Shown here: positions 31,115 through 31,989 of the stretch, in pieces
Numbering within the stretch: the stretch's first letter is position 1
Layout: the number at the start of each line of letters is the position of its first letter
NCBI GenBank assembly: GCA_947258655.1
Contig: CAMYJD010000021.1
Coordinates: 8,476 to 72,475, forward strand
Direction of reading: 5' to 3'
Source of the DNA: an uncultured Gammaproteobacteria bacterium
GTDB lineage: Bacteria > Pseudomonadota > Gammaproteobacteria > JAADHQ01
Length of the DNA stretch: 64,000 bases
Notes under the pieces: generated by a model
Seen by the model: the letters and a program-made list of their open reading frames with translations, nothing else
Told to the model about the DNA's origin: nothing
The model's database searches: none
Position numbers and translations under genes: made by a program

Positions 31115-31989
31115 TCAAGCTTCTGCTGCTGCAGTCTGACCAACGATTGTTTCGTCTTCCTCTTCCATAATGCCGAATTCCATTAACAGTTCTTCGAGCT
31201 CATCCATGTAATAGGAGTCGGAATATTCAGGTTGGTATTTTCAATAACCTTGGTCGCTAACTGACGATATTCATCTGCCTGTTTGTGAGTAGGATCATAT
31301 TCAATAACCGTCATACGACGAATTTCCGCACGTTGAACAGCATTATCACGTGGCACGAAATGAATCATTGTAGTACCCAGACGTGATGCCAGGGCTTCGA
31401 TCAATTCATCTTCACGGTCAGTGTTACGACTGTTACAGATCAGACCTGCCAGACGTACGCTGCCGGAATTGGCATATTTCACAATTCCTTTAGAGATATT
31501 ATTGGCCGCATACATAGCCATCATTTCACCGGAAACAACAATATAGATTTCCTGAGCCTTGTTTTCACGAATTGGCATAGCGAAACCACCGCAGACAACG
31601 TCACCCAGTACATCATAAAAGACGAAGTCAAGGTCTTCCTCGTATGCACCTTCCTCTTCAAGGAAGTTAATTGCAGTGATAACACCACGACCCGCACAGC
31701 CAACACCTGGCTCAGGACCACCAGACTCTACACATTTGATTTCGCCATAACCGGTTTTCAGTACATCCTCCAGCTCGAGATCTTCTACTGTACCGGCTTC
31801 AGCTGCCATCTCCATGATGGTGTTCTGGGCTTTGGAATGAAGGATTAAACGAGTAGAATCAGCCTTTGGATCACAACCCACGATCATGACTTTCTTACCC
31901 AGCTCAGCTAGTCCGGCTACCAGGTTCTGGGTTGTGGTAGACTTGCCGATACCACCTTTACCGTAAATTGCACATTGACGCATTGCCAT
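31115..31989 (-). CDS. nifH: Nitrogenase iron protein NifH, reading frame interrupted by an apparent 1-nt deletion near 31208
   Basis: P-loop [17 protein letters not shown] (DraT target Arg) and VCGGFAMP. The as-read ORF stops at 31183 (..[13 protein letters not shown]). The conserved tail [30 protein letters not shown] continues in the adjacent frame to 31115. Confidence 0.9.

Follow-up and report, generated by a model that had tools for sequence, protein, structure and literature searches.

Local errors in the uncurated scaffolds of short-read metagenome assemblies can corrupt genes, and 13 such errors in one 1.13-Mb genome are a reported example (Chen, Anantharaman, Shaiber, Eren and Banfield 2020, Genome Res 30:315; PMC7111523). 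Single-base breaks in conserved genes are also familiar from the indel frameshifts of Nanopore metagenome-assembled genomes (MAGs), where many occur per window, mostly in homopolymers. In young frameshift pseudogenes the gene is whole apart from one deleted base, with no secondary decay and with intact copies in close strains, and those normally accepted are backed by reads or by independent isolates. Programmed −1 frameshifting, as in E. coli dnaX and the transposases of IS elements, relies on a slippery heptamer and a stimulatory structure (a hairpin or pseudoknot 5 to 9 nt downstream) and is conserved.

We analyzed a stretch of 64,000 nucleotides of a MAG (here called the window) in which nifH, the gene for the nitrogenase Fe protein, is broken by one missing base. 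The lesion resembled the scaffold errors of Chen et al. in being small and isolated, in damaging one gene, in lying in a strain-variable region and in having no outside support, and its frequency was of the same order (2 lesions in 64 kb versus 13 errors in 1.13 Mb); those errors were defined by a lack of perfect read support, whereas here the scaffolded short-read type of the assembly and the privacy of the lesion are established, and single-base deletions are not specifically described among them (PMC7111523). The nifH lesion also had the features of a young frameshift pseudogene listed above. It differs in being known from one assembly, and it would kill a single-copy gene whose partners stay under purifying selection. 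With programmed −1 frameshifting it shared only the arithmetic, namely, a continuation in the −1 frame with an overlap of a few codons; heptamer, structure and conservation were all missing. In contrast to the many homopolymer breaks of Nanopore MAGs, the 64 kb contained a single 1-nt break, located at a CC pair, and the assembly bears the marks of short reads. Whichever of the two live readings holds, assembly error or ordinary young pseudogene, the lesion belongs to a familiar class.

On the minus strand, the 3′ end of nifH in the window reads ...CTG AAT ATT CCG ACT CCT ATT ACA TGG ATG AGC TCG AAG AAC TGT TAA, and the junction (CATGTAAT) is without the extra base of its relatives. A first-pass annotation of the same DNA had described nifH as frameshifted just before its conserved tail, and we recovered both the 268-aa open reading frame and the tail in the −1 frame (Table 1). 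Upstream of its ATG, this −1 frame continues for just 11 codons before it is closed.

Table 1. Features of the window discussed in the text, with coordinates counted from its first base
Feature	Coordinates	Strand	Remarks
nifH as deposited	31183..31989	-	268-aa frame: residues 1-261 canonical Fe protein, then WMSSKNC and TAA
Displaced NifH C-terminus	31115..31207	-	−1 frame, 30 codons, starts with ATG
Lesion, one base missing	between 31207 and 31208	-	plus strand CAT/GTAAT versus CAT-N-GTAAT in relatives
Strain-specific mosaic block	30935..31321		SNP clusters relative to the allele of close strains
nifD	29498..30979	-	full length, TIGR01282 profile 1-466/466
nifK	27838..29409	-	full length, TIGR01286 profile 1-516/516
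draT	32204..33025	+	divergent from nifH, PF07357 profile 1-254/256
asnB, second broken gene of the window	61603..63097	-	451-aa frame stops at 61742

The 268-aa product passed the NCBIfam model for nifH (TIGR01287, 450.4 bits against an equivalog cut-off of 394.35) and spanned positions 1 to 257 of its 275, with the tail absent. Its translation and an Fe-protein alignment placed the P-loop GKGGIGKS at G10-S17, the cluster ligands at C98 and C133 and an arginine at R101; these last three residues are the counterparts of the 4Fe-4S ligands C97 and C132 and of Arg100 of Av2. Alignment to solved Fe proteins in the PDB did not extend beyond query residue 262 (Av2 residue 261), and the C-terminal helix that a full-length NifH product would contain was found to be encoded in the −1 frame instead. 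The 269-aa Fe protein of C. pasteurianum, by comparison, still has 12 residues past the break point. Of the 30 tail residues, 28 were identical to the tail of a Ca. Thiodiazotropha MAG. As the first-pass annotation had proposed, one added base restores a NifH of 291 aa (261 + 30 residues), within the range of 288 to 302 aa seen in 155 complete relatives, and blastn of the window nifH against its nearest relatives gave exactly one gap in each alignment. The gap is thus truly present in the sequence as deposited, and the resemblance of the tail is not due to chance. On the coding strand the window reads ATT AC- ATG where the closest strains read ATT ACC ATG, so that, judged against those strains, the missing base is the wobble base of the Thr codon and one C of a CC pair. 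The origin suggested earlier, a contraction of ACA-ATG, is thus slightly off.

We compared the junction with 160 nifH loci, half of them taken from named genomes that represent their species and half from contigs of public metagenomes. Aligning both frames to such references had been recommended in the first-pass annotation, and 155/155 complete NifH genes, from genomes and metagenome contigs alike, have an in-frame junction. The Met was mostly preceded by a Thr codon, with ACC the commonest in both sets (35/61 and 29/73 scored). Public runs were examined as Logan contigs and comprised the sediment metagenomes X1 (study P1), X3 and X4 (study P3) and the sediment metatranscriptome X5 (study P4). 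In all four, every contig that crossed 31207 had one extra base. On the plus strand, the base behind 31207 was G in the closest strains (X1 and X3), corresponding to ACC on the coding strand, while in more distant organisms it was C (X1 and X5), A (X1) or T (X4). Of the RNA contigs of X5, one carried the extra C. Another, which is closer to the window and represents the common, unbroken allele of nifH, read CATGGTAAT through its loose end and differed from the window at 5 of 123 nt (31208-31330). Close relatives therefore transcribe nifH in situ, and the contigs show its common allele to be both intact and expressed in sediment.

The shortened form was not seen again. No indexed public run contained any of the 31-mers spanning 31207/31208 (taken from 31178-31237), no other contig encoded the exact 268-aa product, and a scan of JGI/ENA metagenomes gave a best match of 95% in protein and about 83% in DNA, with no near-identical nifH copy. 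A search of the literature for nifH frameshifts in MAGs yielded nothing specific to this one. The shortened junction is private to this assembly. This absence elsewhere is weak evidence, because no run with the window strain's own spacer allele was found among the indexed runs.

That spacer belongs to a block in which the window departs from its closest strains. Between 21000 and 40999, we counted 59 differences from the strain of X3 over 7866 aligned bases (0.75%), which makes that strain about 99% identical. The gap lies within the most strain-variable stretch of the 20 kb examined, some 390 nt long, in which four SNPs fell in nifD codons 11 to 15, 15 SNPs in the 78 nt of the nifH-nifD spacer (31034-31111; 19% versus the 0.75% background) and five SNPs in nifH codons 223 to 238, beyond which there were almost none. 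From 31112 to 31275, the gap aside, there were no SNPs at all, and the nucleotides of the tail were identical to those of the close strains in X1 and X3. All of the coding SNPs in the block (9/9) were synonymous and at third positions; the window's version is therefore no noise; it is a true allele, and the gene is under selection. Where their contigs cover the block, X1, X2, X3 and X4 carry one common allele and the window carries another, the comparison allele of the spacer coming from four metagenomes in three studies. This pattern indicates that the block may have arisen either by recombination with a diverged lineage or as a strain-chimeric consensus.

The remainder of the nif gene set was complete. 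The NCBIfam profiles of nifD, nifK, nifE, nifN, nifB, nifA and nifL were covered end to end, and both draT, which lies divergently upstream of nifH and whose product is the ADP-ribosyltransferase that acts on NifH R101, and the nearby draG were full length. Neither these full-length profiles nor the synonymous SNPs gave any sign of relaxed selection in the nif genes. The genome (3.48 Mb in 92 contigs, 98.7% complete) was also searched for another nifH-type copy, as the first-pass annotation had advised, and no second nifH was present, the next best matches having E values of 2.5e-8 and 1e-4.

The window contains a second broken gene, asnB, the C-terminus of which continues in another frame to 61603, with the lesion at about 61770. 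The first-pass annotation had put this down to a 1-nt insertion or 2-nt deletion. Compared with the same-genus genome G001, however, a single A stands in place of 21 nt (CTGGTCGACCTGTTGCCTGAG), a net deletion of 20 nt: G001 reads GGC AGC GGC CTG GTC GAC CTG TTG CCT GAG GTG TTG and the window GGC AGT GGC A GTA CTG. Loose ends of close strains' contigs in X3 and X4 agree with the deletion, and in the close strains' asnB, rebuilt from two loose ends of 14 nt, GGCA flanks the missing piece on both sides. With these flanks, the asnB lesion is, as far as the comparison goes, shaped like a natural deletion between short repeats. It is not of the base-calling type and therefore lends no support to a general sequence-quality explanation, which the broken asnB had earlier been thought to favor.

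We also assessed the assembly as a whole. The genome holds 12 N-runs of 5 to 86 bases, and these variable runs together with the 92 contigs point to a scaffolded short-read assembly. A frame-switch screen (reciprocal tblastn between this genome and 400 kb of a genus-mate, with terminal segments checked as well) returned candidates in 8/310 orthologues of this genome and 7/321 of the genus-mate, which holds the stronger ones. One strong candidate of this genome proved to be an N-gap; the other candidates were a mixture, and the divergence of the reference species was too high to assign their lesions to one genome. The gap in question, 35 Ns at 12347-12381 of contig C51, falls within a conserved gene, where homology-based screens take it for a frameshift. 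Set against independent assemblies of close strains, the 20 kb around nifH showed a single coding indel that breaks a frame, the nifH gap. Other indels were intergenic (27319/27324, 33090 and 35019/35043), and a compensating −1/+1 pair four bases apart lay inside nifE (22734/22738, relative to the X3 strain only). Perfect tandem duplications numbered 66 genome-wide, with no preferred length, many natural minisatellites and no assembler signature. The assembly is not generally indel-ridden. Four further regions of the window that we had suspected of holding split genes (23554-25570, 25533-27290, 36724-38233 and 3552-5425) all turned out to be separate full-length genes.

The reading to which we lean is that the nifH gap is a local assembly or consensus error and not a property of the organism, and we regard a private knock-out as nearly as likely. 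The consensus of an uncurated, scaffolded short-read MAG would have dropped the wobble position of this Thr codon, turning ACC into AC, at the nifH 3′ end, where co-occurring strains differ most, and the true gene would be an ordinary 291-aa nifH heading an intact nifHDK operon regulated by DraT/DraG. We infer an origin in assembly or consensus building from several lines of evidence. The shortened form was unseen in the runs, in the contigs and in every complete relative, and there was no gene decay, the tail being intact, the SNPs synonymous and nifDKENBAL, draT and draG full length. As there is no other nifH, a real lesion would idle the whole nif gene set of the window. The gap sits in the most strain-variable stretch, where consensus errors are expected to concentrate, and the same assembly carries another small private lesion, the asnB deletion. 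Assemblies of this class (here 92 contigs and 12 N-runs) are error-prone (PMC7111523).

Several observations run against an assembly error. De Bruijn assembly of short reads seldom makes a 1-nt deletion that no read contains, and the site is a CC pair and no homopolymer. The genome showed no excess of frame switches over its genus-mate, with one strong candidate merely an N-gap, and its coding indels over 20 kb, nifH excepted, were concordant with independent assemblies. The count of tandem duplications was likewise without an assembler signature, and the absence of the shortened form elsewhere counts for little in view of the missing spacer allele. We considered as a further argument that the gap borders a de Bruijn "hub" formed by conserved sequence and dropped it as a strong one: depth falls gradually from 31188, contig ends at 31207/8 are partly due to the gap itself, and most other organisms differ at 31169 and 31184, so the sharing of exact 31-mers is short.

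A real deletion, giving one strain of a sediment population a recent nifH null allele of its own, is a serious contender that we hold somewhat short of even. Translation would then end after 261 native residues and WMSSKNC, and the strain would be unable to fix nitrogen with its nif set still intact, the event being so recent that decay has gone no further. Such a product would be missing the C-terminal helix kept by every known Fe protein and, judging from the structure of Av2, the arm that wraps the partner subunit. With no second nifH, such a strain would most likely not fix nitrogen, a loss of activity suggested by the sequence. The points that weigh against an assembly error largely speak for a real allele: short-read assemblies rarely invent single-base deletions, the other coding indels matched independent assemblies over 20 kb and there was no frame-switch excess. 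The asnB deletion moreover looks natural given its GGCA repeats, and its net deficit was confirmed by the same-genus genome. As a rough estimate, two disruptive indels against some 480 SNPs expected per 64 kb at 0.75% come near the rate for segregating pseudogenes. Furthermore, a DNA match to nifH was missing from all of the other species examined in the genus (0/4), so that nitrogen fixation is dispensable in the lineage. On the other side, neither the indexed runs nor the search with the exact protein gave an independent sighting, the close strains in four runs of three studies and in one metatranscriptome all have the base, the nif genes show no further relaxed selection and there is no back-up nifH. 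If real, the lesion would be an ordinary young null allele, in a non-fixing variant coexisting with fixing strains in marine or coastal sediment, which would be mildly interesting for population ecology and not new in kind. The first-pass annotation had listed error, real lesion and recoding as the three readings and held that sequence alone could not decide among them; both the list and the caution hold.

The first-pass annotation had leaned towards the gap being one of many base-calling indels in a low-quality assembly of the long-read type, a reading that two broken genes in one 64-kb window might suggest and that we consider very unlikely. The second lesion is a 20-nt deletion and not a 1-nt indel, the variable N-runs point to scaffolded short reads, the frame-switch candidates were about as frequent as in the genus-mate, there was no other frame-breaking coding indel in 20 kb and the site is no homopolymer. 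On the frame-switch and coding-indel counts, we rejected a low-quality, many-indel assembly.

Least probable of all is a real deletion with a working Fe protein, made by a −1 slip at ACA-U or by the assembly of a separate 261-aa core and 30-aa tail: a −1 shift right after ACA (Thr) does yield the canonical junction and the tail frame happens to start with ATG, but an X XXY YYZ heptamer occurs nowhere in nifH (the site reads CCT ATT ACA TGG), no run of at least 5 identical bases lies near the site, the next 95 nt gave no better fold than shuffled versions did (MFE of −17.2 kcal/mol versus a shuffle mean of −19.95, z = +1.06), no Rfam family matched, and a frame change was found in 0/155 complete relatives, with the close strains in frame. 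There is no purine-rich Shine-Dalgarno sequence before the tail ATG (ACTCCTATTAC ATG), and a two-piece protein is therefore also unlikely. Recoding, already ranked last in the first-pass annotation, is now actively disfavored by the lack of heptamer, structure and conservation. Low-level −1 slippage without a canonical site, or a two-piece Fe protein, would give the cell a novel means of producing or throttling nitrogenase reductase, and we give either hardly any credence.

The lesion is mainly an annotation issue: the deposited genome would be called nifH defective or would be given a truncated NifH, and surveys of diazotrophy based on intact nifHDK could misclassify the representative genome of this species. 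The outcomes of the analysis are an annotation warning, a corrected account of the asnB lesion and a common nifH allele that the contigs show to be intact and expressed.

Some further features of the locus were recorded. The window's asnB was found in only one of the four other species of the genus, and with nifH matched in none of them, the nif region seems to be present in part of the genus only, which would fit an acquired island. Within the mosaic block, the SNP clusters were separated by fully identical stretches. The spacer contains, at 30980-31114 on the minus strand, a GC-rich inverted repeat (cgggagatccgcttcggacttcccg), and many of the strain differences lie within or next to it. Directly 3′ of draT, between it and the remainder of the locus, the plus strand encodes a 298-aa protein (33188-34084) with a SIR2_2 domain (PF13289, E value of 9.5e-9).
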